49,043 bases of DNA from sequence record NC_049830.1; one strand, 5' to 3'. The notes beneath the pieces are model-generated. The model worked only from the letters and a program-made list of their open reading frames with translations. It ran no database searches and was not told the DNA's origin. A program made the position numbers and the translations under genes. This DNA comes from Escherichia phage PGN590. Positions 7,509 through 28,247 of the stretch are shown in pieces (positions within the stretch are counted from its first letter, which is position 1; each line of letters begins with the position of its first letter).

Positions 7509-7829
7509 AGCATCTACTCCTTTTGTTGCGTTTAAACTGGATGCATTATTGCCTTGCCTCTCCTACATGTCAATATATTTTGTGTTTTAACAACAATTTT
7601 TGGCATGTGGCGCGTTTAAAGATAACAAAATGCTTCAGTTAAGTCATTGGTTTTTATGTTAAAAATGACCCTGTTGACTTGGTTGACGGAGGATTGCTTC
7701 ATACCCATATATATACATACAAAAATCACCACGCATCATCATTGATTAAAAAATATACAATCACACATACATATCACCACAAACAATACCAATCCACCAC
7801 ATACCCATAGAACAAGCACAACAGTAAAT

Positions 7830-7870
7830 AACAAATATAAATACATATATAACTAACTTATTGATTTTAT
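7830..7870. repeat. conserved block shared by both strand-switch control regions (copy 1)
   Basis: AACAAATATAAATACATATATAACTAACTTATTGATTTTAT; about 33/40 identical to 28024-28063; flanked by CA-rich tracts. Confidence 0.6.
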
Positions 7871-7922
7871 GGGTATATATATAAATTTTATTTTGTTCTT
7901 TTTGTTGATGAACGCCAATTCT

Positions 7923-7957
7923 GTTATCTCAAAGTGCGGAGGCTTATTTGAGATAAC
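7923..7957. repeat. perfect 11-bp inverted repeat with 13-nt loop
   Basis: GTTATCTCAAA ... TTTGAGATAAC in non-coding control region. Confidence 0.6.
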
Positions 7958-8107
7958 GCGGGGAACAGAAATAACAGTTGTGCGCGCCAGGATTGCAGGA
8001 AAGGATGCAAGAGGGCCACATTTCTCTATCCCCTCCACACAAAAAGTTAATCACTTGATTAAAATTGATCAAACTCAAAGTCTCACAATCCAGGTGATCG
8101 CGAATGA

Positions 8108-8150
8108 TTTATTCCTGTTATTCCTGATTAATGGAATAGATGGAATAATG
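8108..8150. promoter_or_regulatory. dyad-symmetric operator-like element
   Basis: TTATTCCTG TTATTCCTG attaat GGAATAGAT GGAATAATG; two direct 9-mers mirrored around ATTAAT, 12 bp upstream of promoter-like repeat. Confidence 0.5.
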
Positions 8151-8161
8151 ACCAGTCAGCA

Positions 8162-8180
8162 AATAGCACTTTTTGTTAAA
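8162..8180 (+). promoter_or_regulatory. intergenic repeat, promoter-like (first rightward promoter)
   Basis: TACATT 22 nt after TTGTTA; drives 8244 gene; dyad element just upstream. Confidence 0.55.
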
Positions 8181-8243
8181 CCTGAATTGCCATGATCGGG
8201 TACATTAGACACATCGAAACGAGATACCCATCAGGAGATAGCA

Positions 8244-8516
8244 ATGAACATCAGCAAAACCACTTTCAACTTTGCAAAGCGTCACGGTCTGGATCTGACT
8301 GTTGAAGATTTTGGCGATGTTCTGCAACTATGCATTTGGGAAGCGGATAACGATTGCGAGTGGCTTTGCTCTTATCGCATCAATTACCATTGCTTAACCT
8401 GGCACGGCAATATCTATCTGCCGCAAGAAGTGAAAGAGGAATTGCCAGCGACCATCAATAATGAAGTGTTTTTGCGCAAAGTCCTGAAGTTTATTGCTGA
8501 GGAGATCAAGAAATGA
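8244..8516 (+). CDS. hypothetical protein
   Basis: AGGAGA RBS; first rightward gene after promoter-like repeat at 8162. Confidence 0.5.
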   Translation: MNISKTTFNFAKRHGLDLTVEDFGDVLQLCIWEADNDCEWLCSYRINYHCLTWHGNIYLPQEVKEELPATINNEVFLRKVLKFIAEEIKK

Positions 8517-8758
8517 TTGATGAAGTGGATTTTGAACTTGCAGAGGCCCAGGTAAGGGCCAAAAAGATGGGATTGCGGATCCTGAAGAAAACAGTCGAGT
8601 TCCCGTCGATGCCGTTCGCATCGTTTCATAAAGTGACGGTATTCAGTAGAAAACGCGAGTGTAATGCGCTAATCCCTGTTGGTGATGATAAGCGCATGGC
8701 TAAATTCATTAACGAGTCCTGTGATGTTCTGATGGCCGTTAAACACGATCAACAATGA
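8513..8758 (+). CDS. hypothetical protein
   Basis: ATG overlaps upstream stop (ATGA). Confidence 0.5.
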   Translation: MIDEVDFELAEAQVRAKKMGLRILKKTVEFPSMPFASFHKVTVFSRKRECNALIPVGDDKRMAKFINESCDVLMAVKHDQQ

Positions 8759-8771
8759 AGGGGAAATAAAG

Positions 8772-9038
8772 ATGGCACGAATCAATGCACCTATTCCAGT
8801 AAAACGCAAAGCACGACTGCTTAACAATGGATGTTACGCCATGCGGCCTGCATTTAAGGATCGCACCTTTCCGGTTATCGTCAACGTGTTGTACGTAAGC
8901 CGTAGCGGGAATCTGGCCTTTGTTAGCGGTGAAGATCTGGCGGCGATTGGATTCTATGGCGGTATTTACAGCGAACCGCTCGGATTCTGGATTGTAAATC
9001 CGTCAACTGGAGAACGCGAAATCGAACTCCTGGACTAA
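8772..9038 (+). CDS. hypothetical protein
   Basis: GAAGGGGAAA RBS; stop overlaps repeat motif. Confidence 0.5.
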   Translation: MARINAPIPVKRKARLLNNGCYAMRPAFKDRTFPVIVNVLYVSRSGNLAFVSGEDLAAIGFYGGIYSEPLGFWIVNPSTGEREIELLD

Positions 9039-9056
9039 TAGCACTTTTTGTTAAAA
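9037..9056 (+). promoter_or_regulatory. intergenic 20-bp repeat, promoter-like
   Basis: overlaps TAA of 8772-9038; TACATT 22 nt downstream; conserved leader. Confidence 0.55.
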
Positions 9057-9114
9057 CTCAATCCTCGTGTTCCTGTACATTACACACATCAACAACGAAT
9101 GCGAGGATTTGAAA

Positions 9115-9267
9115 ATGGTTACTCTGATTACCTGGGAACACGAAAACAGCCAGCCGGAAGCGCGCGAGTTTGAAACTGTAGCGGCATGTTATAACCTTGC
9201 GAAAAATGGTGGCTTCTATAAGGCGCAAATCGTTAACGAATTTGGAGTTGTTGACTATGAGTTCTAA
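9115..9267 (+). CDS. small hypothetical protein (50 aa)
   Basis: start set to ATG 9115 after conserved leader and GAGGA RBS. Confidence 0.45.
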   Translation: MVTLITWEHENSQPEAREFETVAACYNLAKNGGFYKAQIVNEFGVVDYEF

Positions 9268-9547
9268 ATTTTACAGCTACACCGATACCGTGGATTTTGA
9301 GGGGATACAATTGCCCCTCCCTAATATATACCGCTATATCACGCGTGACGAACGCGGATATATTGAAGCGTGGCGCTCATATCCAGTGCGGGATCTTGAA
9401 TTTGGCGGCTTCCGCTCTCTTGAGGGTGAGTTGCCGATCTGCTTCGGTCATCAAAGCGGTGAAAATCTTCCGGTTGTTGCGCGGCAGTATCGCAGACACA
9501 AGATCACAAGAGCACTTATCTCTTTAACTGGATCTGTTGTTGAATAG
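9257..9547 (+). CDS. hypothetical protein
   Basis: ATG 9257 overlapping upstream gene end; stop TAG inside repeat motif. Confidence 0.45.
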   Translation: MSSKFYSYTDTVDFEGIQLPLPNIYRYITRDERGYIEAWRSYPVRDLEFGGFRSLEGELPICFGHQSGENLPVVARQYRRHKITRALISLTGSVVE

Positions 9548-9562
9548 CACTTTTTGTTAAAA
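9543..9562 (+). promoter_or_regulatory. intergenic 20-bp repeat, promoter-like
   Basis: overlaps TAG of 9257-9547; TATATT 22 nt downstream; conserved leader. Confidence 0.55.
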
Positions 9563-9618
9563 ACGGTATGCGCCTGAATGGTATATTACATCCATCAACA
9601 ACGAACGAGGATTTAAAA

Positions 9619-9813
9619 ATGGAAAATCAAGTTGATGTTAAAGTTTTACAGCGTGACACCACTCACGAGAAAGGAATCTTTAAGAAAGGCGCTATCATCA
9701 CAATTGATATTGAGGATATGGTTGCGTACCACTCAGGGCTAACTTGGAACGTTGTTAAACATGGCAATGCTTTCAAACTGCGTGGATTCAATACTATTAT
9801 GGAGGTTGTGTAA
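9619..9813 (+). CDS. small hypothetical protein
   Basis: ATG 9619 after conserved leader CATCAACAACGAACGAGGATTTAAAA. Confidence 0.45.
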   Translation: MENQVDVKVLQRDTTHEKGIFKKGAIITIDIEDMVAYHSGLTWNVVKHGNAFKLRGFNTIMEVV

Positions 9814-10094
9814 TGGCCTACAAAAACAGCGATTTTAAAAACTCAGCCGAAACAATCAATGCGGCGCTAATTAAACAACGCGCTTATAGATTCTGGCTTG
9901 ATTATCATAATCTAAGGAAAAAGATTGATAATCTTATCAAGAATGGTAACGCGTCATGTTCTAACATTACGGTTTGGCGCAATATGAACGCGCAGTACGG
10001 CAAGGGAAAAATCCGTTTATTTGGTGGATCTGTTGAAGCGTATGTGTTTAGCGGAACAAAAGTTGTAAGTTTTAACGTTGTTGGCATTAATTAG
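9813..10094 (+). CDS. hypothetical protein
   Basis: ATG overlaps upstream stop (TAATG). Confidence 0.45.
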   Translation: MAYKNSDFKNSAETINAALIKQRAYRFWLDYHNLRKKIDNLIKNGNASCSNITVWRNMNAQYGKGKIRLFGGSVEAYVFSGTKVVSFNVVGIN

Positions 10095-10195
10095 ATGAAG
10101 CTAATAATATTCCATAATGCCTGGATGGTAGCTGTTGCAAATGATCATTATGGCGGAGACGGCAAGCGAGCAAAGCGCCACAGCTATTTCAACTG

Positions 10196-10214
10196 ATAGC
10201 ACGAATTGCTAAAC
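10196..10214 (+). promoter_or_regulatory. divergent repeat copy (ATAGCACGAATTGCTAAAC), promoter-like
   Basis: CATAGT 22 nt after TTGCTA; upstream of 10269 gene. Confidence 0.45.
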
Positions 10215-10268
10215 AATATTTCTAAAACCTGGCATAGTTACAACACCAAATATAATGAGGATTGCATA

Positions 10269-10496
10269 ATGAAAGCTAAAGTAACTAACATCATGCACAC
10301 TGTTGATGCACATCACCGCGTGGCAGTGAAAATGGATAAATCTTGCGGAATCAACCAGTTAACAATAACAAGCGGTAAAGGTGTGTTTGTTGTTGGATCA
10401 CATCCAGGTAGTAAAATCCGCAAATATACTCGCGAAGAATTGATTAAACTGCTGGAAGAAAACAGCATGTTTATTGAAAGCTGGAAGGCTATCTAA
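10269..10496 (+). CDS. hypothetical protein
   Basis: ATG 10269 after GAGGATTGCATA; followed by hairpin 10506-10523. Confidence 0.45.
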   Translation: MKAKVTNIMHTVDAHHRVAVKMDKSCGINQLTITSGKGVFVVGSHPGSKIRKYTREELIKLLEENSMFIESWKAI

Positions 10497-10505
10497 TTAA
10501 TAAAC

Positions 10506-10526
10506 GGGAGGTTTTCGCCTCCCTTT
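10506..10526 (+). terminator. putative intrinsic terminator (weak U-tract)
   Basis: GGGAGG-ttttcg-CCTCCC then TTT. Confidence 0.4.
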
Positions 10527-10546
10527 AAATAAAGGCGATAATAACG

Positions 10547-10657
10547 ATGAAATTTCTTGATATTTTATTTGGTGTGATGATTGGCCTTGCTGGTCTTTTA
10601 GTTGTCACTGCTGGTCTTGCTATTATTCTGATTGTTATCAAGGAGTTTATGAAATGA
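10547..10657 (+). CDS. small hydrophobic peptide (36 aa, single TM), not in ORF track
   Basis: MKFLDILFGVMIGLAGLLVVTAGLAIILIVIKEFMK; stop overlaps next start (ATGAAATGA). Confidence 0.35.
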   Translation: MKFLDILFGVMIGLAGLLVVTAGLAIILIVIKEFMK

Positions 10658-10878
10658 GTCAGGATGGATTTTTTGAGAGACTGCAAAAAGCGGAAGATGC
10701 TGGACTGAATAAAGAGGCCGCTCTTGAAGTTGCATATAAGATCAGGACACTTGATGATGCGTTGGGTGAAATGGATATGGAACATGAATGCGGTGCTGCA
10801 TTTGCAGATCCAACGATGATTGTTAATGATTGCGGCTGCAATTTTGATCCTAACTGTCCGCGATGCTTTCCGTTTTGA
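10654..10878 (+). CDS. hypothetical Cys-rich protein
   Basis: C-terminal CGCNFDPNCPRC cluster; start coupled to upstream peptide. Confidence 0.45.
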   Translation: MSQDGFFERLQKAEDAGLNKEAALEVAYKIRTLDDALGEMDMEHECGAAFADPTMIVNDCGCNFDPNCPRCFPF

Positions 10879-10887
10879 GGTGATGAA

Positions 10888-11598: not shown

Positions 11599-11613
11599 CA
11601 CTTTTTGTTAAAA
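11594..11613 (+). promoter_or_regulatory. intergenic 20-bp repeat, promoter-like
   Basis: overlaps TAG of methyltransferase-like gene; CATAAT at 11633-11638. Confidence 0.55.
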
Positions 11614-11669
11614 GCTAGGTGTAAAAGCCTGGCATAATCACTTCACCGAAACGAAAGGAGAAATAAACG

Positions 11670-12274: not shown

Positions 12275-12288
12275 CATTTTTTGTTAAA
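12270..12288 (+). promoter_or_regulatory. intergenic repeat (variant AATAGCATTTTTTGTTAAA), promoter-like
   Basis: overlaps TAG of 12053-12274; TATTAT at 12309-12314 inside a hairpin. Confidence 0.5.
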
Positions 12289-12343
12289 TGCGGGTAGCAT
12301 TGGTGCGGTATTATTGCCGCATCAAAAAAAGGAGTTATCATCA

Positions 12344-13927
12344 ATGAATTTTTCGTTTGAAACCAATAAACTAACACCAAAACAAATTATCGAATTAGCT
12401 GATGCACAAGGATTGTCTCCGGTGCGCGTGTCCATTCAGGCAAACGGATACCGTCAATCGTCCAGCTTTTGGGGTGAGGTTAATGATGTTAATAACGGAA
12501 ATGATCGCTACCCTGTAATTTCTCTTGGTAATGATGTTGATGTTGTTGGTAAGTTGGCGCGCAACATTGCTCGATCAGTTCAGTTCCCTGAATCATCGGC
12601 ATATATGCACTTTATAGGCTGCGTGTCTGCTGCAATGCTTGGACGCTTCACGGTTGAGTATCACGGAACGGATCAGCCGACCGCTCTTTATGTTGTCACA
12701 AGCCAGCCTCCTTCAACTGGTAAATCCGCCGTTAACAGCCTGGCACTTGCTCCAATGGTTGCAGAAGTGGAAAGAATTAACGATCAGCGAAAGAAGGAAA
12801 GAAAAAAGATTCAGGCAAAGTTGGCAGGTCTTGCAAAAGAGATGAAAAGCGAGCGCTCCGGCGCTGATATGGAATCTCTGTACCAGGAGAAAGAAGATCT
12901 GGAAGAAAAACTTGAAAAGATGTGTGACATTGTTTTCCCTGTGTCCGACACCACGCCGGAAGGACTTGCAAGAATCAACAATCGCCAGGGTAACTTTGCT
13001 GTGATTTCAGACGAGGCAACGAGTATTAACAGCCTTTTAGGTCTGACATATGCCAATAGCGAACGTAAAACCAACAGCGAACTTGTGCTGAAAGCATGGG
13101 ATCATGGTCATGTTTCTATAGCTCGTGCAAACGCTGACAACAATATGAGTTTTAAAGCTCTTGGCTGTATGGCTGTAATTGCCCAGGATGAAACAATCAA
13201 TGCCATCATGGATGCAGGATCGCGCGGTATCGGTGTAAGTGAGCGTTATTTGCTTGTACGCGAGGAATCATTTTTAGGCCGTAGAAAGTTTGTTGATGAT
13301 AACGGTGATTCTACTTATGAGCCTGTTGATGGAGAACTGAAAAGCCAATATTTCAAGCTGATCCATAACATCATGAGTGAATCAAACATCCAGCTTAAGA
13401 TCAGCAAATCAGCAATGCGAGTTCTTAACATGGCTCGTCAGGAGATGGAACCGCACCTTGCTGATGGAGGAAAATATTCGCATACAATGCTGCGCGGCGC
13501 TCTTGGCAAAATGGATAAGCAGGTGATCAGGATTGCTTCGGTTTTGCACACTATCCGAAACTGGTTTAATCCTGGCGGATACCCTCAAAAGTCGAAAGAG
13601 ATTGAGGTTGAAACCGTTCAGGAAGCATTGCTGATGTTTAGCGAGTTGAGCAAAACATACATTAGCGCCGCCAACGCTTCTGGCTATGCTGGTGATGATG
13701 CTGAAATGGGTAAACTAATCGAGATCATCACTCGACACGGCAAGGCTAATAAGGGGATCTTGAATGTGCGCGCAATATATGAGGCTGCACGAAAAGTTAA
13801 GCCGTTTATTGGCCAGGCTGGCGTAATGAAGCGTATGGAAACGCAACTGCTGCCGATGCTTGAAGAAAGAAATTATATTTGTGTGATTAATGGAGTTGTT
13901 TTTGTAAATCCAACATTGCTGGGGTAA
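12344..13927 (+). CDS. P-loop NTPase (SF3-helicase-like Walker A)
   Basis: AAGGAG RBS; Walker A VVTSQPPSTGKSA; Walker B-like FAVISDEA; coiled-coil insert between them. Confidence 0.5.
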   Translation: MNFSFETNKLTPKQIIELADAQGLSPVRVSIQANGYRQSSSFWGEVNDVNNGNDRYPVISLGNDVDVVGKLARNIARSVQFPESSAYMHFIGCVSAAMLGRFTVEYHGTDQPTALYVVTSQPPSTGKSAVNSLALAPMVAEVERINDQRKKERKKIQAKLAGLAKEMKSERSGADMESLYQEKEDLEEKLEKMCDIVFPVSDTTPEGLARINNRQGNFAVISDEATSINSLLGLTYANSERKTNSELVLKAWDHGHVSIARANADNNMSFKALGCMAVIAQDETINAIMDAGSRGIGVSERYLLVREESFLGRRKFVDDNGDSTYEPVDGELKSQYFKLIHNIMSESNIQLKISKSAMRVLNMARQEMEPHLADGGKYSHTMLRGALGKMDKQVIRIASVLHTIRNWFNPGGYPQKSKEIEVETVQEALLMFSELSKTYISAANASGYAGDDAEMGKLIEIITRHGKANKGILNVRAIYEAARKVKPFIGQAGVMKRMETQLLPMLEERNYICVINGVVFVNPTLLG

Positions 13928-13929: not shown

Positions 13930-14322
13930 ATGTTTCTTCTGGACCTGTATCGCTGGTGTGAGTCATTCGAATGGTTTACACGTCAACATATAGCGAAATT
14001 TATATTTCAGCATAGAGAATGTGAGCGGCTCGCAAGGGCCGCAGGATTTACACCGAGAATGTTTGCGACTGCCGTTTCAAAAGAGTTTTGCGCAAGAATG
14101 ATGACCGCTGGTTATCTTGATGGAGTTGATGGAAAGTTCTGGTGTAAGAAAGGATCCGCAAATCGCCCTTTCTCGTTTGAACTTTACAGCCTGGAAGGTA
14201 TGCAAAACGAATGGGTTAGGGATGTTTTAAGGATCGGAGAAATGAGCGATGAAGAATTGTTTGCGTCAAATGCTAATAGACAAAATATTGAAGTTCTGCG
14301 CCGTAAGTTCAATCTCACATGA
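13930..14322 (+). CDS. hypothetical protein
   Basis: ATG 13930 three nt after upstream stop. Confidence 0.5.
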   Translation: MFLLDLYRWCESFEWFTRQHIAKFIFQHRECERLARAAGFTPRMFATAVSKEFCARMMTAGYLDGVDGKFWCKKGSANRPFSFELYSLEGMQNEWVRDVLRIGEMSDEELFASNANRQNIEVLRRKFNLT

Positions 14323-18416: not shown

Positions 18417-18831
18417 TCATCATGTGTTCTACAGCGATCATGAATTGCTTATATCCGTATGTTACGGCAGCGTATCCGCCAAGCTCGCGCACGCGGCGTA
18501 AGAAGGCTTTTTGCTCCTTGCTGACTGGTGAAGCCTTACCCTTGCCAGACTTATTGACGCGCTTCATCTCAATAGCCGCGAAAGGGTAGCGGCCTTTTAA
18601 TCCAATCAGGATGATAAAATCACTTACTCCCTTAACGAGTCCGGCTTGCTGATCCATCATTGCGGTGGCGATCCCCTTGTCGCCCTCGTTTTTCGTATGC
18701 CATGCCAGCAATTCAGGATGAGCATAACTCAACCATTGAAACGCCCCGATCTGGTGTGATTCCTCTTTTAGCGTATCCGTCGGATCTCTTTCGTAAAACT
18801 CCAGATAATCGCCTTTATCAGTCATTGGCAT
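18412..18831 (-). CDS. VRR-NUC-type PD-(D/E)xK nuclease
   Basis: GVSDFIIL and AIEMK motifs (D ... E-x-K); adjacent to helicase. Confidence 0.55.
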   Translation of the reverse strand: MPMTDKGDYLEFYERDPTDTLKEESHQIGAFQWLSYAHPELLAWHTKNEGDKGIATAMMDQQAGLVKGVSDFIILIGLKGRYPFAAIEMKRVNKSGKGKASPVSKEQKAFLRRVRELGGYAAVTYGYKQFMIAVEHMMK

Positions 18832-20863
18832 AATTAAATTCCTTCTTGTATAAATTATCTTCGCCCTTGCTAGTCTTGCGGTGAGTCACACGCGATGGTG
18901 GCATGATGTGATTCACATATTGCATTATTTTTCGTGCATTACGATAGCTCGCCACCATGCCAGCAACACGGCGATCCGGTATGTGCTTAAGAGCAACGCT
19001 TCGCCATTTTGCGCGGCAAATTTGGCTCTCAGATTCAGGGAAAAATATCTCTCTCGCCCTGAAAGTGTCTATGCCATCGGAAAGCTCATAATTAAATATT
19101 ATCCCTTTCTGGTTTTTCGTCATGTCAACCGAGAAAGATTGCACCTTGAACCAGTCGTTTTTTGTGTAGTGCTTTCCGCTCAACTTCTCGTTAGGGTCAA
19201 TCAATGACATGTCGCAATGTCTGCATACCCTGGCCGCAATATCATTCTTCGTTCCGCAACCGCGATGAATAATCTTTTTAGTTCGAGGGTCAATCTGATC
19301 ATCACATGTCCTGAATTTAAAGAACCACTCACATCTGTTGCCGTTTTCGTCTACGTGCATACAACGACGAGCATAATAGCTGTTAAGAGTTCCGCAAATA
19401 GGGCACGGTTTCGGATCTTTACCGTTCCTGAATCGCTTCTGGTGCTGCGCCTGTTCCAGTATCGGATCAAAATAAAGTTCCCCTAGCTCGTCCATCGTTC
19501 CTGAAAAGTCCATAACGAGGTGATCATCTTTCTGGAATCCTTGCTCCTTATGCCACTTCTTAAGTAGTCGCATTCCGCGCCCCAAAAGCTGAATCAGCAA
19601 AGTTAGCGATCCAATCTTGCGCAGTATGACAGACGTATCCCAAAACGGAACGTTAACGCCAGTTGTTAGCGCCTGCACCTGGAAGATGTATTTTACCTTT
19701 CCCTCGTATGCTTCCTTTAACCACTCCTTGCGCTGGTTATCGCCAGTCTTACCAGTAATGATCCTGTAAGTAGTTCCAGGTGGCAATGCTGCCGCTGCCT
19801 CTTTGCAATGCCTTTCTCCCGCACATGTCACAAGTACACCGTTACGGTTTTTACAGATCTCGTGAACTTTAGCCATGATGCGCTTTGTCATGGTCGCTTC
19901 TTCGTGAATTTTTTGTTCCATCCTGCGAAGCGTTTTAGCGTCAAAGTCTGCGACGCCATCCTCGCTGGATGCCTCAAACTCTGAAAGGTCATACCCTAGA
20001 TCGCCAACGTCGCCAAAATTTGTTGGCACAACAGAACCGAATTTGATCAGGTAGTTGGTGTCAATATTAGTAACCTGTTCACGCCAGAATCCTTTCTGTT
20101 TTTTGTCTTCTACCAGGATCGGGACTACTCCGCGAAACTCCGAACCAGTCATACCAAAGATGCGCAGTTCATGACCATATGCTTTCCTGCAACGTCGCAT
20201 CATTTCCATGATAATGACAGTGTATTGCGTGCGGCCTGTTCCCTCCATTGGTAAGCCATCCTCACCAATCAGGAACTCTGTATTTCTGTTCCTGCTGCCC
20301 TTTGTTATGTCATAATCTGGATTTGGTACTTTTTCGCCTTTCTTCGTTGTCATTTGTAAAAATGATTCGTCTTTCTCTATGGCGTCGGCAAGGTCTTCCC
20401 AATCCACCTGGTGACACTCGTCAATCCCGATAACGTGCGGAACATAGTCGCCAAGCGCTTTAAACAGTCCATTAACTACAGTGCCCTCAGAACCAACAAC
20501 AATCGGAAAGTATGCGCTTTTTGTCTTCAGTCCTGCGCAATAGATGGAGTTCGGCACGCCAAGATTTGTTATCTCTTCAGAATCCTGATCCACAATCTCA
20601 GCCTGGCGAGCAAGGACCATCATTTTTAATCCAATTTTCCGGCACTGGTGAGCAACCATTGCAAACATCAATGTTTTGCCAGCCGATACGGACGCTTTAA
20701 CAAAGAATGGATGCTCATAATTTTTCATACGCTTTGCGATCTCAGCGTATGCAACGCACTGGTAAGGGTAAGGCACAATCTCGCCAACAGTGAATCGCTC
20801 CTGAATGGATTTAATTACCGCTTCACCAAGTGCTGATATTTGCTTTTCAATGTTTGGAATCAT
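18818..20863 (-). CDS. SF2 DNA helicase (DEAH-box) with C-terminal zinc-ribbon region
   Basis: Walker A SAGKT, DExH IGIDECHQ; C-terminal Cys clusters; start set to ATG 20861-20863 (AAAGG RBS). Confidence 0.8.
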   Translation of the reverse strand: MIPNIEKQISALGEAVIKSIQERFTVGEIVPYPYQCVAYAEIAKRMKNYEHPFFVKASVSAGKTLMFAMVAHQCRKIGLKMMVLARQAEIVDQDSEEITNLGVPNSIYCAGLKTKSAYFPIVVGSEGTVVNGLFKALGDYVPHVIGIDECHQVDWEDLADAIEKDESFLQMTTKKGEKVPNPDYDITKGSRNRNTEFLIGEDGLPMEGTGRTQYTVIIMEMMRRCRKAYGHELRIFGMTGSEFRGVVPILVEDKKQKGFWREQVTNIDTNYLIKFGSVVPTNFGDVGDLGYDLSEFEASSEDGVADFDAKTLRRMEQKIHEEATMTKRIMAKVHEICKNRNGVLVTCAGERHCKEAAAALPPGTTYRIITGKTGDNQRKEWLKEAYEGKVKYIFQVQALTTGVNVPFWDTSVILRKIGSLTLLIQLLGRGMRLLKKWHKEQGFQKDDHLVMDFSGTMDELGELYFDPILEQAQHQKRFRNGKDPKPCPICGTLNSYYARRCMHVDENGNRCEWFFKFRTCDDQIDPRTKKIIHRGCGTKNDIAARVCRHCDMSLIDPNEKLSGKHYTKNDWFKVQSFSVDMTKNQKGIIFNYELSDGIDTFRAREIFFPESESQICRAKWRSVALKHIPDRRVAGMVASYRNARKIMQYVNHIMPPSRVTHRKTSKGEDNLYKKEFNYAND

Positions 20864-20921
20864 TCTAAAACCTTTGAGTAATGCCATTTGGCGTGTATAA
20901 TACACAATCATTAAATCATCG

Positions 20922-20940
20922 TTTAACAAAAAATGCTATT
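20922..20940 (-). promoter_or_regulatory. intergenic repeat (variant), promoter-like, helicase side of divergent region
   Basis: sense AATAGCATTTTTTGTTAAA; TATTAT (plus-strand 20897-20902) downstream. Confidence 0.5.
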
Positions 20941-20952: not shown

Positions 20953-21426
20953 ATGAAAGAAAAGCGGATCGCGGTATCAACTGGCAAAATTGACAAACGC
21001 ACAATCAATGGCAATAACGGAACTCGACGTGGTAAAGATAAGAAAAAGCGCAAGCGCCCTACAGGATACTATGTTTTAAAAGATGAAGTGCGCGCAGGAC
21101 TAAAAGCACGGCTTGACATTCTTATTGAGTATTACGGAAGCGTGTCAGCAATGGCAAAGCGTCTTAACGTTAGCCAGCAAACTGTAAATCAGTGGCGTGT
21201 TCGAGGTATGATTTCAGCCGCTGGCGCTCAAAAGGTGCATAACGATTACAAGAAATATGGTTGTCAAGGCTATCGCGCTTCATTCTGCCGTCCAGATCTA
21301 CGATTTGATTCCAATGGCAAACCGCTCACAAAGAGATGTGATAAGCGTGAAATGTTGCGAGTAGTAAGAATGTCAGATTATGAACCTGGCGGATTCCTGT
21401 ATAAACCTGAAAGCACTAATTGCTAA
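20953..21426 (+). CDS. HTH DNA-binding protein (putative regulator)
   Basis: basic N-terminus, HTH-like SVSAMAKRLNVSQQTVNQW. Confidence 0.45.
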   Translation: MKEKRIAVSTGKIDKRTINGNNGTRRGKDKKKRKRPTGYYVLKDEVRAGLKARLDILIEYYGSVSAMAKRLNVSQQTVNQWRVRGMISAAGAQKVHNDYKKYGCQGYRASFCRPDLRFDSNGKPLTKRCDKREMLRVVRMSDYEPGGFLYKPESTNC

Positions 21427-21481
21427 AAACAATGCCTGGCATGATGTTATCATCTGTCAGGCTTTTTTGTTTGAGGTGTAT

Positions 21482-22414
21482 ATGAATAACGAAAACTTTA
21501 TGGTTTATCAAAAGGAAGATGTACTCCCATATATGCAAGGATTGTGGCGTGATGCGCTACAAAGTATTTGCGGTCTTCCAAATGAAGTTTTTAACGGCAA
21601 GCATCAATCTTGCCCACACTGCGGCGGAAAGGATCGCTTCAGATGGACGGATAAACTTGGCGATAAAAAAGGCGATGGCGGTGCGATCTGCAACGTGTGC
21701 GGTAATGATACCGGAATTGGTTGGATCATGAAGCTAACCGGAGAGCCTTACAGCGAAGTGATCAACATTTTGGGCAGATTTCTTGGAAAAGTTCCTCAGG
21801 ACTATAGAATAAAGGCAAATAAGCGAGTATCTCGTGATTCTGGTTATTCGTTTGGTAAACAGGCAAGTCATGAATGCTGCGAGCGCGTTATGTCAAAAAC
21901 ACTAAAATTTGATCGAACGCCGTTAAGCACATATGAAGGAATATACCCACCTGAAGATGGTCATTATGATTGCGGCGTAAAAGATGGTAGATACATTCAC
22001 GCGCTACCTTGTCACCTGGTACACTCAGATGAGATTGATGATGAAATGTGCAATGTGCTTTTCATTGATGAAGAAGGTAAACAATCTTTTCTAGCAAAGG
22101 ACTACACGCGCGGGTCGGTAGTGAGAACAGGAAGCACCGATAAGACTATCTATCTTTGCGTTGACTGGATTGATGCGCAACACATCCATCTTGCAACTGG
22201 TCAAGAGGTTTGGTCATGTTTTGATGCAACTAACATTGAGATTGTGGCTTACAGGTATAAAGGCAACAGAAGAATGCGAGTTGTCTGTAAGAGTACAGAC
22301 CGTGACACAATCATTGCTGCTGAGGAAAGAGGTATTGAAATTATGATTCCGATTAATGATAATTACAGGCAAGGGATAGAGAGGAAAGTTTACAAACCTG
22401 AATCTCTTCTCTAA
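21482..22414 (+). CDS. DNA primase (zinc-ribbon type)
   Basis: GAGGTG RBS; CPHCGG...CNVCG zinc ribbon near N-terminus; strong terminator follows. Confidence 0.6.
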   Translation: MNNENFMVYQKEDVLPYMQGLWRDALQSICGLPNEVFNGKHQSCPHCGGKDRFRWTDKLGDKKGDGGAICNVCGNDTGIGWIMKLTGEPYSEVINILGRFLGKVPQDYRIKANKRVSRDSGYSFGKQASHECCERVMSKTLKFDRTPLSTYEGIYPPEDGHYDCGVKDGRYIHALPCHLVHSDEIDDEMCNVLFIDEEGKQSFLAKDYTRGSVVRTGSTDKTIYLCVDWIDAQHIHLATGQEVWSCFDATNIEIVAYRYKGNRRMRVVCKSTDRDTIIAAEERGIEIMIPINDNYRQGIERKVYKPESLL

Positions 22415-24738: not shown

Positions 24739-24754
24739 CAAAAAATAATCACAA

Positions 24755-24781
24755 GGCGCGGCTACGGTTGCGCCTTTTTTT
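24755..24781 (+). terminator. intrinsic terminator after tail fibre gene
   Basis: GGCGC..GCGCC hairpin followed by seven T. Confidence 0.75.
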
Positions 24782-25099
24782 GTCTTTATGCCATTTGCTG
24801 ACATATCGCTTACAAATATTTTATATCTATTCCTGGTAATTTGGCGCACACCATTTGTCGTACCATAAATATTGCAAACTTTTTTAATTTTTTAACGTCA
24901 AAGAGAGCACACACAATATCTGATTAAGGTCAATCACCAATATCAATTATGAAATCGGCAATGTCAGGTTTTAACGGGCTTGGAAGTATGAGCGGAATGT
25001 TGTCAATAATGACCAATGGAAAACTTAATGCTCATCAAACTGAACTTGCAAAGCGAATTGCTGTTAAGGTTATTGCCGTTCTTGTGATGGATGAAAGTG

Positions 25100-25120
25100 G
25101 AAAAGGGGCGCAATGCCCCT
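25100..25120 (-). terminator. putative terminator after ssb
   Basis: hairpin AGGGGC/GCCCCT with four U on minus strand. Confidence 0.4.
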
Positions 25121-25127
25121 TTGTTGA

Positions 25128-25580
25128 TCAGAAAGGAATGTCATCGTCAAAGTCCATAGGAGGCTGATTGCTTTGTCTTGGCTGTTGCGGTTGTTGCGGT
25201 TGATTCTGTTGTTGTGGTTGGCCCCATCCCCCTTGCGTTCGCTGCTGATATTGTTGATGGCTTTCCCCGCGCTGACTGAAGATAAGATTTGCAAATCCAC
25301 CAGGCATCAAACTTGAATACATCTTTCCGTTGTGTTCTCGCGTTTCAATGCGCAGAGTGTCACAAGAAACAGAAATAACCTTGCCAACCTGGAACGCCTC
25401 AGCATACCAACCATTAAGTCCGTCAGTTTTCGCATTAAAAAAGAAACTGTAGTTTGTATATTGCCAGTTTCCATCTTTATCTTTGTATCGCTCTGAAAGT
25501 TCAACCACATAAAGTGTGCTGCCGTTAGGCATTTGCTTTACTCGCGGCTCTTTTCGGATCTCACCAGTAATAATATGCAT
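25128..25580 (-). CDS. ssb: single-stranded DNA-binding protein
   Basis: OB-fold-like N-terminus, Gln/Pro-rich linker, acidic tail DFDDDIPF. Confidence 0.85.
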   Translation of the reverse strand: MHIITGEIRKEPRVKQMPNGSTLYVVELSERYKDKDGNWQYTNYSFFFNAKTDGLNGWYAEAFQVGKVISVSCDTLRIETREHNGKMYSSLMPGGFANLIFSQRGESHQQYQQRTQGGWGQPQQQNQPQQPQQPRQSNQPPMDFDDDIPF

Positions 25581-25624
25581 TATTTATTCTCCTGTAAGAA
25601 AGGGGCGCAAGCGCCCCATGTCAA

Positions 25625-26281
25625 TTATTCAAAATCAGTGATACTTTGTGATTTTACTTGCTCGTCGTTTTTTGTGTCAACGTCTTGAGCGGCGAGATTT
25701 TGCTTTGGTTGCGCTGGATTAAATCCTCGTGCTTTTCCGATCTCAAGCTCTGCTTTGCGTTTTTCGTAATGCTCTTTAATTACCTGCTTGCTTGCCGGAT
25801 CGCTTGCCTTCCATGCTGATTTGAGCACTTCTTGTAATTCGTTTACGCTTTCACATTTCTCAATGTCACGCTTCCAGTCATTTGCAGATTTAACGGCAAT
25901 CTGTGCGTCATCGTCTGCCTGGCTTAATCCAAATGCGGCTGCTGCTGCATAACGACGAGCATATGTGAATGCAGATCCGACGCCTTGAGGATCGTTTTTA
26001 ACTATTGGTAATTCAGCATAGAATTTAACCCACTGACCGGAAACATGCAGGACTGTAGTTTCAACCTTGATTCGGTTAGGTTGTTCGCTTTCAATCATAT
26101 CCTGCATCAACATTAGCTCGTTATCGTTGAGTGCTGGAGTGATTGCATCAAGTACGGCATCAAGTGTTGCGTAACGGTTTTTAAGGTGCGTGTTTTGCTT
26201 ATCCTTCTTCACCTTTACAAACAAACTGCGCGCCTTATGCAGTGCTGGCAAAACCTTGTCGAATTGCTCTGATAGTTTCAT
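25625..26281 (-). CDS. Erf-family single-strand annealing protein
   Basis: [23 protein letters not shown] resembles Erf core as recalled from P22 Erf. Confidence 0.65.
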
Positions 26282-26326
26282 GATTAATTCCCGTAATTAA
26301 TGGCGGCTTTCGCCGCCTTATTGCTG

Positions 26327-26605
26327 TTAGTGCTTTGCCTCTTCTTTGGTGTGTAATTTAATCAGATTTTCCATCATGCGATCAGAACTTTCTTTTACAG
26401 CCTTGATTGCTTCATCGTTTTCTTCGCTCATTGTTGCAATAAGTACGACGTTATCGACCGCATCAATTACTTTTCTGATGTACTCCATTTCTTCTTCGCC
26501 TGCAGTTGGATCAAGTGGCGCCACAAAGTCACGAAGCAACATAGCCATGCCAGTTGCAAAATTGTTGATATGAACTGCCACCTCTGACACTTGCTTGTTT
26601 TCCAT
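26327..26605 (-). CDS. hypothetical protein
   Basis: GAGGAAATAAA RBS; between exonuclease and Erf. Confidence 0.45.
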   Translation of the reverse strand: MENKQVSEVAVHINNFATGMAMLLRDFVAPLDPTAGEEEMEYIRKVIDAVDNVVLIATMSEENDEAIKAVKESSDRMMENLIKLHTKEEAKH

Positions 26606-26686
26606 ATTTATTTCCTCACGCTTGTTGTTAACTTATGCGGTGAATTATAACACCGCATTTTTCATTTGTTTAGCTATTTGTGCTGT

Positions 26687-27748
26687 TTAAATAAGATATT
26701 GCTTAAACTGGCGGCGCACCCAATCAGGAGTATCAAGGCAAACCTCAGGCTCACCGTTTGAATACGAAGGCCAAACGTCATGTTGCTGGCACATGGCAAA
26801 CTGGTTAATCACGCTCGTGTACTGAATGCGCCCGATCTTCAACTGCTCGCTATTCATGCGGAAAGCCAACGGCAAATAAGGCTCTTTCTTCTCTTGGGCT
26901 AACAGTCGCACAACTATAGGTCGCTTTTCTTCTGGATATGCTTTCCTGAATAAATCACATTGCAACGCCATTTTCAAATAATATCCGTGATTGTAAGCCA
27001 GGCGCATAAACTCAACCGGATTAGCGCTCATTGTGGTTTTGTAGTCTGTGATCACAATGGCCTCTGGATAAATAATATCTCTGCAAATAGGCTGGCCTTT
27101 TTCATCGTAACCATCAATCAGCGTTGCGGTGACGTTCTTTGTTACGTCAACGTGATCGCATCGAACTTTGACTTTTACGCCGTTAATTTCACCGAATAGC
27201 GATAATTCACGTTGTGCTGTCTTGCTATTCATACATGCGTTATGTTCAGGTATGGATTCAAGAACCTGGCGCATTGCCACGCACGCATCGTAATCTTTAG
27301 CCTCGATTAACTGAACCCCATCGGCCCTGGCTTGACTTTCTGCGATCATCTCAATCAACCACATAACGTTAAGGTCTTCTCCGCAATCAACCATCATTTT
27401 GATAAGATCTGGATAAGTCTTTCCGGTTGTACCTTTCAGGCCAAATGATTTCAGTTTTGCAGCCAGCGCCGTTTGGCTAGTTATCAGATCCTTAAAGTCT
27501 TCTGTCGCTGGCGCACGGCGATAGTTTTTTTCGAAAAGCTCCTTGCTTTCAAAGTTGGTATGCGACTGCGTACCGAAAACTAGCGCTTTGCTCTTATCAT
27601 CACGAGGCTTGAACTTCCACGCCGCCGGGCATGTGCTGTAAATCTCTGCCAGGCTTGATCCGCTAACATAATCAGCCGTCCACGCTTCTGGATCGTGATA
27701 AAGCTCGTTGCTCATTTCTTCGCTGGTGTACGCCATAAACTTATTCAT
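26687..27748 (-). CDS. RecB-family PD-(D/E)xK exonuclease
   Basis: ITDYKTT motif typical of RecB/Cas4-type nuclease domains; partner position to Erf. Confidence 0.65.
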   Translation of the reverse strand: MNKFMAYTSEEMSNELYHDPEAWTADYVSGSSLAEIYSTCPAAWKFKPRDDKSKALVFGTQSHTNFESKELFEKNYRRAPATEDFKDLITSQTALAAKLKSFGLKGTTGKTYPDLIKMMVDCGEDLNVMWLIEMIAESQARADGVQLIEAKDYDACVAMRQVLESIPEHNACMNSKTAQRELSLFGEINGVKVKVRCDHVDVTKNVTATLIDGYDEKGQPICRDIIYPEAIVITDYKTTMSANPVEFMRLAYNHGYYLKMALQCDLFRKAYPEEKRPIVVRLLAQEKKEPYLPLAFRMNSEQLKIGRIQYTSVINQFAMCQQHDVWPSYSNGEPEVCLDTPDWVRRQFKQYLI

Positions 27749-28023
27749 GATTTGCCCTCATTGGTTGGTATGTCTGCATTGTAGCTATTTGATGCGTTTA
27801 GTCAATAGTTATTTTGTTTTTTCTGTTCTAACAACGTTCTCACCAACTTTGGTAACAAAACTTACATGTAAGAGATTGATAAATATCAGTGTTGTCTTTT
27901 TGTTCTCTTGTTCATCCATTTGCGCCGGATATAGATATATAGACACACAAACACTAACACATACACAACCAAATAAAAATTACCAGACACACAAAATCAC
28001 ACAAAACATAGATAACAAGAAAA

Positions 28024-28063
28024 AACAAATATAAATATATACACTACTAACTCATTGATTTAT
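28024..28063. repeat. conserved block shared by both strand-switch control regions (copy 2)
   Basis: AACAAATATAAATATATACACTACTAACTCATTGATTTAT; flanked by CA-rich and TATATA tracts. Confidence 0.6.
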
Positions 28064-28172
28064 ATATATGTATATATACTTATCTGTATGTATAGCGCTC
28101 TATTACTGTTCACTTTTTGAGCTAAATTTAAGCCTCCGCAGATTTGAGAACGAAGGAAAACAAAAAGAACAG

Positions 28173-28191
28173 AATAGCACTTTTTGCTAAA
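28173..28191 (+). promoter_or_regulatory. intergenic repeat (variant TTGCTAAA), promoter-like
   Basis: in control region 2; TATAGT at 28211-28216; drives lipoprotein gene. Confidence 0.5.
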
Positions 28192-28247
28192 CGCACGCCG
28201 CAAGATCGTGTATAGTTGCAACTAACAATAACTAAGGAGAAAACAAG

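Follow-up and report, generated by a model that had tools for sequence, protein, structure and literature searches.

Paired AT-rich non-coding elements in a T1-like phage as candidate replication origins

Two studies of T1-like phages report that no replication origin was found (PMC11447400, PMC7718038). The window analyzed here, the whole 49,043-nt stretch of Escherichia phage PGN590, belongs to a Hanrivervirus (Drexlerviridae), a T1-like phage, and two of its non-coding regions (A and B), 20 kb apart, carry one copy each of a common element. An earlier note had proposed for them a common protein-binding or replication-initiation function. What do the two copies share, and which function fits them best? 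None of the papers found describes these paired elements.

A common element in regions A and B

Block A (7830-7869, AACAAATATAAATACATATATAACTAACTTATTGATTTTA) and block B (28024-28063, AACAAATATAAATATATACACTACTAACTCATTGATTTAT) are identical at 33 of 40 positions without gaps, as the earlier note had counted. A repeat search of the window extended the ungapped pair to 111 nt with 70% identity (7757-7867 and 27951-28061). A gapped local alignment over ~125 nt (7757-7881 and 27951-28078) scored 81, compared with 28.0 ± 4.2 (maximum 42) for shuffles that preserved local composition in 40-nt blocks. The similarity between A and B is far above chance, AT-rich composition included. The block is the core of a ~320-bp element present at about 7671-7977 (A) and 27892-28172 (B) in the same genomic orientation. 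Each copy combines TA runs and a G-depleted CA tract with short phased repeats of the TGTT type, quasi-palindromic GC boxes and an IHF-consensus site (Table 1). Regions A and B hold no credible coding sequence, and no Rfam family matched them.

Table 1. Features of regions A and B
Region	Feature	Position	Strand	Remarks
A	Leftward sigma-70-type promoter, TTGACA-17-AATAAT	7545..7573	-	Promoter scan, 11/12 consensus matches; predicted to drive the gene starting at 7508
A	Left box, CTGTTGACTTGGTTGACGGAGGATT, two TGTTGAC / GGTTGAC repeats	7671..7695	+	
A	First TA run, CATATATATACATACA, 16 nt alternating pyrimidine/purine	7706..7721	.	Kept in relatives
A	G-depleted CA-rich tract	7715..7824	+	4 G in 120-nt window from 7734
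A	Conserved block	7830..7870	.	Nearly invariant among Hanrivervirus relatives
A	TA-rich core, least stable 60-bp duplex	7834..7893	.	
A	IHF-consensus site in block, AATCAATAAGTTA	7854-7866	-	Pattern match
A	TTTTGTTCTTTTTGTTG box, TGTT repeats 9 nt apart	7891..7907	+	
A	Palindrome GTTATCTCAAA / TTTGAGATAAC around GC box GTGCGGAGGCTTA	7923..7957	.	
A	A-specific, highly conserved non-coding segment	7984..8155	.	Absent from B; 14% variable columns
A	IHF-consensus site in A-specific segment	8048-8060	-	
A	Inverted repeats TTATTCC x2 / GGAATA x2 in A-specific segment	8109-8149		
A	Rightward promoter-associated 21-nt family repeat (AATAGCACTTTTTGTTAAA), then -10-like GGTACATTAG	8162..8208	+	
B	Leftward sigma-70-type promoter, TTGACT-16-TACAAT	27778..27805	-	Promoter scan; predicted to drive the RecE-like exonuclease operon
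B	Left boxes, TTGTCTTTTTGTTCTCTTGTTCATCC, then GC box ATTTGCGCCGGATA	27892..27931	+	Kept across Tempevirinae region B alignments
B	First TA run (TATAGATATATAG) and G-depleted CA-rich tract	27930..28023	+	
B	Unstable core: TA run 28061-28079, 10-bp periodic repeats 28061-28094	28023..28094	.	
B	Conserved block	28024..28063	.	
B	IHF-consensus site in block, AATCAATGAGTTA	28048-28060	-	Pattern match
B	Right flank: CTGTTCAC, GC box AAATTTAAGCCTCCGCAGATTTGAG 28124-28148, inverted TGTTCTTTTTGTT box 28159-28172	28106..28172	.	
B	Rightward 21-nt family repeat and -10-like element	28173..28218	+	Upstream of cor-like lipoprotein gene 28248-28475

In the window both regions lie between divergently oriented genes, as first described. 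The name "strand-switch control regions" is too narrow: ordinary promoters are located at the margins of each region, with the shared ~320 bp between them. Promoter B is kept across 43 relatives, T1 included, and a distant phage locus (L206) has a TTGACA-17-TACTAT promoter at the position analogous to promoter A. The rightward 21-nt family repeat (21 copies in the window vs. 0.56 expected) has been reported for TLS, with function unknown (PMC11447400).

The CA-rich tracts and TATATA runs seen earlier were confirmed. The CA-rich motifs are ACACATACATAT at 7763-7774 (A) and CACACAAA within 27945-28010 (B), and G makes up 3.6% of the + strand over 7700-7868 and 3.9% over 27935-28062, with a C:G ratio of ~6. 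The two G-poorest 120-nt windows of the whole stretch start at 27946 and 7734 (4 G each; third-lowest 9, mean 24). A tract without G on one strand cannot fold when single-stranded, and the CA tracts were essentially unstructured (minimum free energy -1.3 kcal/mol over 145 nt in A, and -1.8 kcal/mol over 141 nt in B), with no stable or significant fold on either strand. Tract B contains a tandem repeat, CACACAAAAT, in 1.9 copies, and core B a tandem repeat of period 10 in 3.4 copies. Of the heptamer ATATATA, the two regions hold 15 copies vs. 6 in the remaining 48 kb.

By nearest-neighbour free energy, core A is the least stable 60-bp duplex of the window (-57.5 kcal/mol, z = 5.0) and the 60-bp duplex of core B starting at 28023 the second least stable (z = 4.8); the third-ranked site has z = 3.4. 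The least stable 100-bp stretch of the genome starts at 27994, in B (z = 5.0). Among relatives, 30% (A) and 34% (B) of the columns of the CA tracts are variable, compared with 15% of the core block in A and about 10% in B (57 columns, 28024-28080); the core block and the boxes are 2-3 times less variable than the CA tract.

In left box A, GGTTGACGGAGGATT is invariant in eight Hanrivervirus relatives and the next 6 nt vary freely; TLS has TGTTCAC(G) repeats at this position. Both window copies of TGTTCTTTTTGTT fall in the regions, one in the 7891-7907 box and one, inverted, at 28159-28171, and TLS also has the 7891-7907 box, in A as well as in B. The palindrome at 7923-7957 has invariant outer arms (GTTATC / GATAAC), with the inner arms changed in BEK7. 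Its GC box, GTGCGGAGGCTTA, recurs in B in the inverted sense, as found by an inverted-pair repeat search (28124-28148), and related boxes are present in TLS (ATTTACGCCGGAT) and Rtp (TTTCCGCGGAA). The right flanks of B in the window and in TLS are colinear.

Host IHF had been suggested as a binding protein. Both Hanrivervirus cores carry perfect minus-strand matches to its consensus WATCAANNNNTTR (7854-7866 and 28048-28060) with TATATATA tracts 5′ of them, as expected of IHF sites with their upstream AT-rich tract, and 4 of the window's 10 consensus matches lie inside the two regions. The suggestion can apply to the Hanrivervirus group only: no match was found in the cores of TLS, T1 or Rogue1. 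Consensus matches in AT-rich DNA are weak evidence for IHF sites, and the missing conservation outside this group speaks against an origin of the kind proposed below.

Conservation of the pair and analogous elements

Taking one genome per genus (window, T1, TLS, Rtp and Rogue1), the paired element is kept in five genera and four subfamilies of Drexlerviridae, always in two copies. In all five genomes the two cores hold the first two ranks of duplex instability, in 60-bp as well as in 100-bp windows (z-scores 4.2-5.9; at most 3.8 for the third rank). The TA core pair is universal, whereas T1 and Rtp have a weak CA tract or none. Genus-specific short motifs cluster in the two regions: TGTWACA in T1 (6/6 genomic copies), TGTTCAC in TLS (4/8) and CCGCGG in Rtp (3/3, together with GCGT repeats ~10 bp apart). 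The flanking repeats of the window are short and only moderately enriched (ATAACA, 6 observed vs. 0.8 expected), and the "iterons" are clearer in T1 and Rtp.

Similarity between A and B within a genome is at least as high as that between orthologous elements of different genera. The best partner of T1 A is T1 B, Rtp A scores 141 against Rtp B, above any Rogue1 element, and region B of the window scores 81 against its own A vs. 50 against TLS B. This fits co-evolution with a trans-acting factor. The five-genus pair, the motif clustering and the A-B similarity together argue well, if indirectly, for the protein-binding function that had been suggested.

Four further phages with the same DUF3987 helicase (three distant, one divergent T1-like) carry an analogous AT-rich core beside the helicase gene or operon, flanked by lineage-specific repeats in two of the four (L204 and L207). 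The core is the least stable DNA of the locus in L204 (GGGGG, 19 copies in the region vs. 4 outside), in L207 (ACCCCA(G) on the flanks in both orientations) and in L208, the divergent T1-like phage (TGTACG, 5/8 copies in the region). L206 has CTTACA 10 times in the region vs. 11 outside, and a G-free (AAC)12 tract; its stability minimum is not outstanding (z about 3), which counts against an origin. In L207 the element comes after the helicase gene and a terminator and is located between co-directional genes, as is the TLS region B homologue. The divergent setting therefore does not define the element, which is independent of divergent promoters.

Replication initiation as the proposed function

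The least stable cores, and the AT-rich elements beside the DUF3987 gene in four further phages, make replication initiation the function that we infer to fit best. Tentatively, and at slightly less than even chances, we read the elements as paired sites of nucleoprotein assembly and DNA melting, most likely replication origins. Each element comprises a TA-run core flanked by helically phased TGTT(C/A) repeats and GC boxes, preceded in this subfamily by the ~100-nt G-less tract. A phage-encoded DNA-binding protein would occupy the repeats and boxes. This could be the MCM/Orc-like DUF3987 helicase (12344-13927), acting through its winged-helix C-terminus, the 130-aa product of the gene that follows (13930-14322) or a Cro/YdaS-like HTH protein (20953-21426). 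Host IHF, judged from consensus matches only, would bend the core in Hanrivervirus. The TA core, of computed low stability, would then melt, the helicase would load on the structure-free G-less strand, and the Zn-ribbon primase (21380-22414) would prime synthesis.

Both enzymes belong to the phage replication set. The helicase model (pLDDT 86.6) has a winged-helix-like C-terminus, and its best solved-structure matches are MCM2-7 subunits and an origin-bound Orc1/Cdc6. The winged-helix assignment depends on this model, whose TM-scores are modest (about 0.33), and no PDB entry matched the helicase in sequence. Regions A and B have no DnaA boxes and no GATC cluster, so initiation would have to be phage-driven. 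GC skew follows gene orientation only and gave no replication signal, and a rightward fork from B would meet the 20-kb late operon head-on, which speaks against an origin.

Iteron origins with an AT-rich unwinding element (DUE) of phages, plasmids and phage-inducible chromosomal islands are similar in their AT-rich least stable core. They are also similar in having short lineage-specific repeats in both orientations beside the core, seen here in all genera and on both core sides in the window, TLS, T1 region B and Rtp region A. The genome itself encodes the cognate helicase and primase, and the analogous element adjoins the helicase gene in L204, L206 and L207. In contrast to such origins, there are two copies 20 kb apart, neither beside the helicase gene, which region A precedes by 4 kb. 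The window repeats are short and degenerate, and a strand-asymmetric G-free tract is added.

Satellite phage P4 has a two-site origin, ori and crr, bound by its alpha protein at the iteron TGTTCACC. The present elements are likewise two separated cis regions with the same short repeats, and the TLS TGTTCAC(G) repeats resemble that iteron. The phage also has the set of a Zn-ribbon/DnaG-type primase, a P-loop hexameric-type helicase and a winged-helix-like domain, comparable to the domain architecture of the alpha protein (PMC2777425). Here, however, primase and helicase are separate proteins, and the helicase, a DUF3987 family member, resembles MCM/Orc proteins in its structural matches, while no solved structure matched it in sequence. 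The sites are spaced by 20 kb in a 49-kb virulent phage, and cooperation between them is only putative.

In transcription-primed phage origins (T4 oriF/oriG, the T7 primary origin) a promoter precedes an AT-rich unwinding element. The promoter-like left box followed by TA runs and a strand-asymmetric tract is reminiscent of this arrangement, but no convincing promoter was predicted, and R-loop-prone RNA is expected to be G-rich, whereas a rightward transcript would here be G-free.

Alternative functions

The main rival, which we consider rather unlikely, takes the elements as regulatory, operator- or enhancer-like modules upstream of the adjacent promoters. A phage regulator (e.g., the Cro/YdaS-like HTH protein), alone or together with IHF, would bind the GC boxes and TGTT repeats; the AT-rich core would be a bendable spacer or UP-like DNA, and the two operons would be co-regulated as one regulon, for example in an early-to-middle switch. 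Both elements are flanked by sigma-70-type promoters, and the nearly constant distance from the core to the start codon of the leftward gene (265-350 bp in 9 of 10 elements) is also compatible with a regulatory element upstream of the leftward promoter. The quasi-palindromic GC boxes resemble dimeric HTH operators (TTCCGCGGAA in Rtp), the TGTAACAC sites of T1 region A overlap the -10 region of the gene 77 promoter, and the TGTTCTTTTTGTT box is similar to the middle of the 21-nt family repeat associated with promoters. Furthermore, the operons headed by A and B form a single replication and recombination operon in L204 and L206. However, the replication-related operons headed by the two elements run in opposite directions, while the elements themselves are oriented alike, and ~320 bp of extremely unstable DNA with a 100-nt compositionally constrained, strand-asymmetric tract far exceeds the needs of known operators. 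The motif sites are also missing from the regulator's own promoter region, and L207 places its element past a terminator, downstream of the helicase gene.

It is improbable that the function lies in RNA, with the G-poor, C-containing unstructured tract acting as a Rho-loading (rut) site, non-coding RNA or leader, in a rightward transcript that starts at a left-box promoter and terminates or insulates between the divergent units. The + strand tracts, C-rich relative to G and structure-free over >140 nt, would suit this, and the invariant TTGACG, variable spacer and invariant TA run of region A resemble a -35, spacer and -10; the spacer, however, would be 19 nt, region B is without TTGACG, and the consensus scan found no rightward promoter in A or B. 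We found no Rfam match, no stable fold on either strand and no intrinsic terminator. The AT-rich core and boxes are the most conserved parts, not the tract, which T1 and Rtp lack or have in weak form. Lambda nutL/nutR and HK022 putL/putR are conserved paired non-coding elements beside divergent early promoters, and these sites act as RNA, oriented with their transcripts. The likeness extends to a conserved non-coding block that occurs twice per genome close to early promoters, and to a late region full of terminators. Unlike nut and put, both copies have the same genomic orientation, with no conserved RNA structure predicted and no Rfam match.

A role in packaging or recombination, as part of pac or as end hot spots for RecE/Erf-dependent concatemers, is a little more doubtful again. 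The GenBank records of T1, TLS, Sazh, U136B and G29-2 start no more than a few hundred bp away from core A. That of T1 starts inside the region A homologue, with positions 1-2800 annotated as a repeat region, presumably the terminal redundancy. Region B is directly upstream of recE-erf-ssb, and an IHF site beside the terminase site is known from lambda cos. Nevertheless, a single pac end has been described for T1 and TLS (PMC11447400), whereas the element always occurs twice. The A-specific segment 7984-8155, absent from B, is the better pac candidate, with an operator as its other possible role; its TTATTCC / GGAATAAT repeats are kept in T1, ~45 bp from the end of the record. The elements of L204, L206 and L207 adjoin replication genes, although in L206 terminase genes are also within 2-4 kb.

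Least probable is a segmental duplication of an AT-rich promoter region that left two similar copies with no shared function. A and B can be loosely aligned in their left parts, leftward promoters included, which suggests that the whole unit was duplicated once, but the pair is kept in five genera and four subfamilies despite near-complete divergence between subfamilies. Within each genome the copies change in parallel, and the core block is the least variable part.

Returning to replication initiation, we propose that (i) the two elements are both origins, or one origin and a cooperating second site; and (ii) the pair provides the best current candidates for the replication origins of the T1-like family.

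Paired conservation and local stability of the elements

The window, of 49,043 bp, covers essentially the whole genome of a T1-like siphophage that belongs to Hanrivervirus (Tempevirinae, Drexlerviridae). The earlier note had claimed that its non-coding regions A and B share a block with about 33 of 40 identical positions, and this count was exact (7830-7869 vs. 28024-28063). The similarity was longer than the block: an ungapped 111-nt pair showed 70% identity, and a gapped local alignment (7757-7881 with 27951-28078) scored 81, when compared with 28 ± 4 (maximum 42) for shuffles that preserved local composition. The CA-rich tracts described in both regions proved to be the two G-poorest 120-nt windows genome-wide (4 G each vs. 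a mean of 24), and ATATATA occurred 15 times in regions A and B together vs. 6 times in the remaining genome. By the shuffle scores, the G-poverty and the ATATATA counts, the similarity is real and not an artefact of composition.

The window was compared with four complete genomes, those of T1 (Tunavirinae), TLS (Tempevirinae), Rtp (Braunvirinae) and Rogue1 (Rogunavirinae), and with 43 homologues of region B from IMG/VR and 7 of region A. The comparison with related phages proposed in the earlier note supported the similarity, as the paired element was kept in the window, T1, TLS, Rtp and Rogue1. In every genome compared the two elements occupied matching map positions, one heading both clusters of early genes, at the point where the records of T1 and TLS start, and the other upstream of recE. 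The strand-switch setting assigned to both regions applied to the window, but not to region B of TLS, which is flanked by co-directional genes; thus, the element does not depend on a change of transcribed strand. Among close relatives, Escherichia phage herni was 97% identical to the window over region A. About 20 unannotated "Campylobacter phage" records (MG065636-MG065687, host Campylobacter jejuni) carried both regions at 89-94% identity, and these look like mislabelled or contaminant T1-like phages. Searches of 5,426 complete E. coli genomes and of the PLSDB plasmids found no match to the element. Pattern scans of IMG/VR yielded unspecific matches with TTTGTTCTTTTTGT and only three relevant loci with ATATAACTAACYTATTG, and a related-locus search with the gene left of region A yielded one locus.

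A nearest-neighbour profile placed the cores, the TA-run centres of the two elements, as the two least stable 60-bp windows of the window (z = 5.0 and 4.8). In all five genomes the two cores ranked lowest in stability at both window sizes, 60 and 100 bp (z = 4.2-5.9), and the third-ranked unstable site never exceeded z = 3.8. Both cores have the properties of a DNA unwinding element (DUE), being AT-rich and markedly less stable than the rest of the replicon.

The two copies within one genome resembled each other closely. Shared A-B blocks spanned 123 nt at ~85% identity in Rtp and 68 nt at ~82% in Rogue1, and the local score was 66 in T1. In the core similarity matrix, the best partner of the T1 A element was the T1 B element, the Rtp A element was closer to its B counterpart than to any Rogue1 element, and the B element of the window was closer to its own A element than to that of TLS region B. 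The short motifs were genus-specific, yet common to both copies of one genome. The two regions contained all six genomic copies of TGTWACA in T1, four of the eight of TGTTCAC in TLS, and all three CCGCGG palindromes of Rtp, where GCGT repeats phased by ~10 bp were also present. Repeats of the iteron kind were thus clear in T1, Rtp and TLS, whereas the window had only degenerate TGTT(C/A) and ATAACA repeats, and both genomic copies of TGTTCTTTTTGTT fell within the two regions. This parallel motif change suggests that the copies co-evolve with a DNA-binding protein acting in trans, or that selection maintains gene conversion between them, rather than a decaying duplication.

Anatomy of the two regions

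In both regions the ordinary promoters form the outer edges and the shared element lies in between. From left to right, the element consists of a left box with TGTT-type repeats, a GC box (region B), a first TA run, a G-depleted CA tract of ~100 nt, GAACA/ATAACA repeats, the conserved block including a minus-strand site that matches the IHF consensus perfectly, more TA runs, a TTTGTTCTTTTTGTT box, and a quasi-palindromic GC box (GCGGAGGC) whose orientation in A is inverted relative to B.

Coordinates of features in and around regions A and B
Feature	Coordinates	Strand	Description
Region A	7509-8243		flanked by leftward small early genes and by a rightward cluster with the DUF3987 helicase at its end
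Region B	27749-28247		flanked by a leftward recE-like exonuclease operon and by a rightward small cor-like lipoprotein gene, 28248-28475
Sigma-70-type promoter, leftward, region A	7573-7545	-	TTGACA-17-AATAAT
Sigma-70-type promoter, leftward, region B	27805-27778	-	TTGACT-16-TACAAT
IHF consensus WATCAANNNNTTR with AT-rich tract 5′	7854-7866; 8048-8060; 27869-27881; 28048-28060	-	pattern match
21-nt family repeat ATAGCACnnnTTGnTAAA, then -10-like element, rightward, region A	8162-8208	+	
21-nt family repeat ATAGCACnnnTTGnTAAA, then -10-like element, rightward, region B	28173-28218	+	
ATAGCACnnnTTGnTAAA, example site	1208-1225	-	
ATAGCACnnnTTGnTAAA, example sites	8163-8180; 28174-28191; 38874-38891; 42633-42650	+	
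DUF3987 protein, ORF	12281-13927	+	end of the operon headed by region A
DEAD-type helicase	18818-20929		
Cro/YdaS-like HTH protein	20953-21426		
Zn-ribbon primase	21380-22414		

The IHF consensus matched 10 times across the window vs. 4.1 expected. It was kept in Hanrivervirus and near relatives, and no match was found in the A or B cores of TLS, T1 or Rogue1; T1 region B had one match, outside the core. The two longest alternating purine-pyrimidine runs of the window also fell in the regions (19 nt in B and 16 nt in A), but such long runs, which would suit Z-DNA or a cruciform, were not conserved in Rtp or Rogue1.

Among close relatives, variable columns made up 10-15% of the core block and 30-34% of the CA tract, which suggests that the exact sequence matters in the block, and base composition more in the tract. 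A-to-G substitutions in the CA tract, which selection against G would suppress, were under-represented in A (4 vs. 17 C/T transitions) and not in B (8 vs. 8). The only public annotation found to touch either element is a repeat_region of phage haarsle (1579-1612 of its locus L001, MN850600.1 27022-27055), which covers the CACACAAAAT tandem and corresponds to ~27978-28011 of the window, within the CA tract of region B.

The ATAGCACnnnTTGnTAAA repeat occurred 21 times in the window vs. 0.56 expected. A -10-like hexamer lies ~22 nt downstream, so that the repeat is too distant to serve as a normal -35 element. Nineteen copies are oriented along the local genes, and the copies at 38874 and 42633 lie in intergenic gaps of the late operon, against its direction. 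This repeat has been described in TLS, where its function was given as an open question (PMC11447400).

Near each element we noticed a 44-nt inverted match of 77% identity (6976-7019 vs. 28256-28299). It joins the 5′-end of a small gene close to region A (6770-7030, minus strand) and that of the plus-strand cor-like gene beside region B. Both gene starts appear to encode lipoprotein signal peptides (..IAxxTLTGC), and the match together with these predicted peptides points to a paralogous lipoprotein gene start near each element.

ORF 7869-8195 (+) was rejected as a gene, having no Pfam or PHROG match and an inconsistent annotation: it is a hypothetical protein in herni, altered in grams and JLBYU09, and unannotated in BEK7 and aalborv, with a frame-breaking 1-nt indel in BEK7. 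This ORF and ORF 27708-28034 (+) are probably annotation artefacts, and the remaining small ORFs in regions A and B were judged not credible.

Candidate replication origins and the DUF3987 helicase

An oriC-like, DnaA-dependent origin was rejected. No match to the DnaA box (TTWTNCACA) was found in region A or B, and the shared elements are devoid of GATC, which is absent from 7296-8067 and 27691-28204. Initiation at these elements would therefore need to be phage-driven. Across the window GATC is over-represented (275 sites vs. 175 ± 12 expected), which agrees with reports of Dam methylation in T1 and in TLS.

The window encodes several replication proteins (see table). The start of the DUF3987 protein is probably the ATG at 12344, because its homologues have 520-530 aa. 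In its AlphaFold model (pLDDT 86.6), a P-loop core precedes a C-terminal domain that resembles a winged helix, and the best matches among solved structures were MCM2-7 subunits and an origin-bound archaeal Orc1/Cdc6 (E-values of 1e-4 to 2e-3, TM-scores of ~0.33). The DUF3987 helicase and the Cro/YdaS-like HTH protein were considered as putative cognate initiators. Neither the DUF3987 helicase nor a 130-aa protein matched any PDB sequence, including the P4 alpha origin-binding domain, in single-sequence or profile searches.

Four further phages encoding a DUF3987 helicase (34-59% identity) were examined at the loci L204, L206, L207 and L208. In L204 (21.5 kb), stability is lowest in a 611-bp region between divergent genes (z = 4.7-5.7), which immediately precedes the helicase operon and has a TA-run core flanked by GGGGG/CCCCC repeats (19 in the region vs. 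4 outside). The equivalent region of L206 (557 bp) has an AT-rich stretch and 10 CTTACA/TGTAAG sites vs. 11 in the other 21 kb, although its stability minimum does not stand out. With respect to a leftward TTGACA-17-TACTAT promoter, the parts have the order and strand polarity seen in the window, and a perfect G-free (AAC)12 (9390-9430, intergenic, upstream of the DUF3987-primase-helicase operon) is equivalent to the CA tract of the window in position and strand. The L207 element likewise has the lowest stability of its locus (z = 4.3-4.7), with inverted ACCCCA(G) repeats on its flanks, and it lies downstream of the helicase gene, beyond a terminator and outside a divergent-promoter setting. 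In L208, a divergent T1-like phage, the stability minimum of the locus coincides with the region A homologue (z = 4.9-5.8), where five of the eight TGTACG sites of the locus are found. These data suggest that an AT-rich region with repeats travels with the DUF3987 helicase gene across different genomes.

We tentatively regard the shared block as the core of a paired element for nucleoprotein assembly and DNA melting, most likely a pair of candidate replication origins, a reading held with slightly less than even confidence. It builds on what was computed: the paired conservation, the extreme low stability unique to the cores, the parallel motif evolution, a G-less strand free of structure, the link to the helicase gene seen in other phages, and a shared element devoid of coding sequence and of known RNA. 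A putative binding protein would assemble there, IHF may participate, and melting, helicase loading and priming would follow. An AT-rich core with flanking repeats is a well-known type of element. Against the origin reading, the repeats of the window are degenerate, the IHF consensus is kept only within the Hanrivervirus group, a rightward fork from B would run head-on into the late operon, and the constant distance from core to leftward gene start suits an upstream regulatory element equally. GC skew tracks gene orientation only and is uninformative on an origin.

P4 ori and crr form a two-site arrangement of an origin and an enhancer-like second site. Like them, A and B are separated cis regions with common repeats and boxes, here in the five genera examined, and the resemblance is purely structural. 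In its domain logic, the P4 alpha protein (PMC2777425) combines primase, SF3 helicase and winged helix; this combination was not found here, the primase and helicase of the window being separate genes 7 kb apart, and full-length P4 alpha was absent from the structures searched. A bolder form of the proposal, which we consider doubtful, is a coupled pair (two origins, or an origin and an enhancer-like site) read by the DUF3987 winged-helix domain and provided with a polar G-free priming track, a new architecture in Drexlerviridae and DUF3987-helicase phages. The G-free, structure-free strand would then provide a track for polar loading and for priming. The primase recognition triplets of other phage and bacterial primases contain G. 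A G-less strand cannot carry such triplets, which would confine priming to the opposite strand.

Alternative roles and meaning for the family

The main rival is an operator or enhancer module that co-regulates the flanking operons, which is possible but rather unlikely. The palindromic GC boxes would suit it, as would the T1 motif, which is placed like an operator at the gene 77 promoter. The size and strand asymmetry of the element, the way it is oriented with respect to the operons, and the arrangement in L207 argue against it.

An RNA-level role of the CA tract, for example as a rut site or leader, is improbable. The tracts have the composition expected of rut RNA (G 3.6-3.9%, C 21-24%), are at least ~80 nt long, C-rich and G-poor, and as single strands are free of structure (minimum free energy of -1.3 over 145 nt and -1.8 kcal/mol over 141 nt); a promoter-like pattern with a 19-nt spacer is present in region A. 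A consensus scan, however, found no rightward promoter in either region, the universal TA core would be left unexplained, and the inversion of the GC box between A and B argues for recognition of dsDNA and against RNA. A structured RNA was rejected as well, as the whole window had no Rfam match at gathering score and the folds were not significant on either strand of both tracts.

Packaging or recombination, which would fit the record-start positions and the position of recE, is slightly less probable still, as it fits poorly with two copies and with the distant relatives. The region A-specific segment 7984-8155 would be a better pac candidate than the shared element. This strongly conserved non-coding segment has 14% variable columns, fewer than the CA tract, and at 8109-8149 carries TTATTCCTG twice, together with GGAATAGATGGAATAAT, as inverted repeats (TTATTCC/GGAATAA). 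T1 keeps these repeats ~45 bp from the end of its record, where the terminal repeat begins, and TLS has other palindromes at the equivalent place (AGACCAATCGGTCT twice). The segment may serve as pac or in terminase recognition. The least probable reading, a functionless duplication, is contradicted by the paired conservation throughout the family.

T1 belongs to the original set of T phages. No paper on these elements or on an origin in the T1 family was found in the literature searched, and two reports of T1-like phage genomes, published in 2020 and 2024, stated that an origin could not be located (PMC7718038, PMC11447400). With the candidate-origin reading, two precisely bounded sites make the replication origin of a classical phage family, and perhaps that of DUF3987-helicase phages at large, directly testable, and the predicted MCM/Orc-like DUF3987 helicase becomes a candidate initiator. 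If the elements are true origins, they would (i) aid the engineering of T1-like phages and the design of dependent replicons; and (ii) aid the recognition of origins in many DUF3987-helicase phages. If they are operators instead, they would constitute a family-wide regulon switch.
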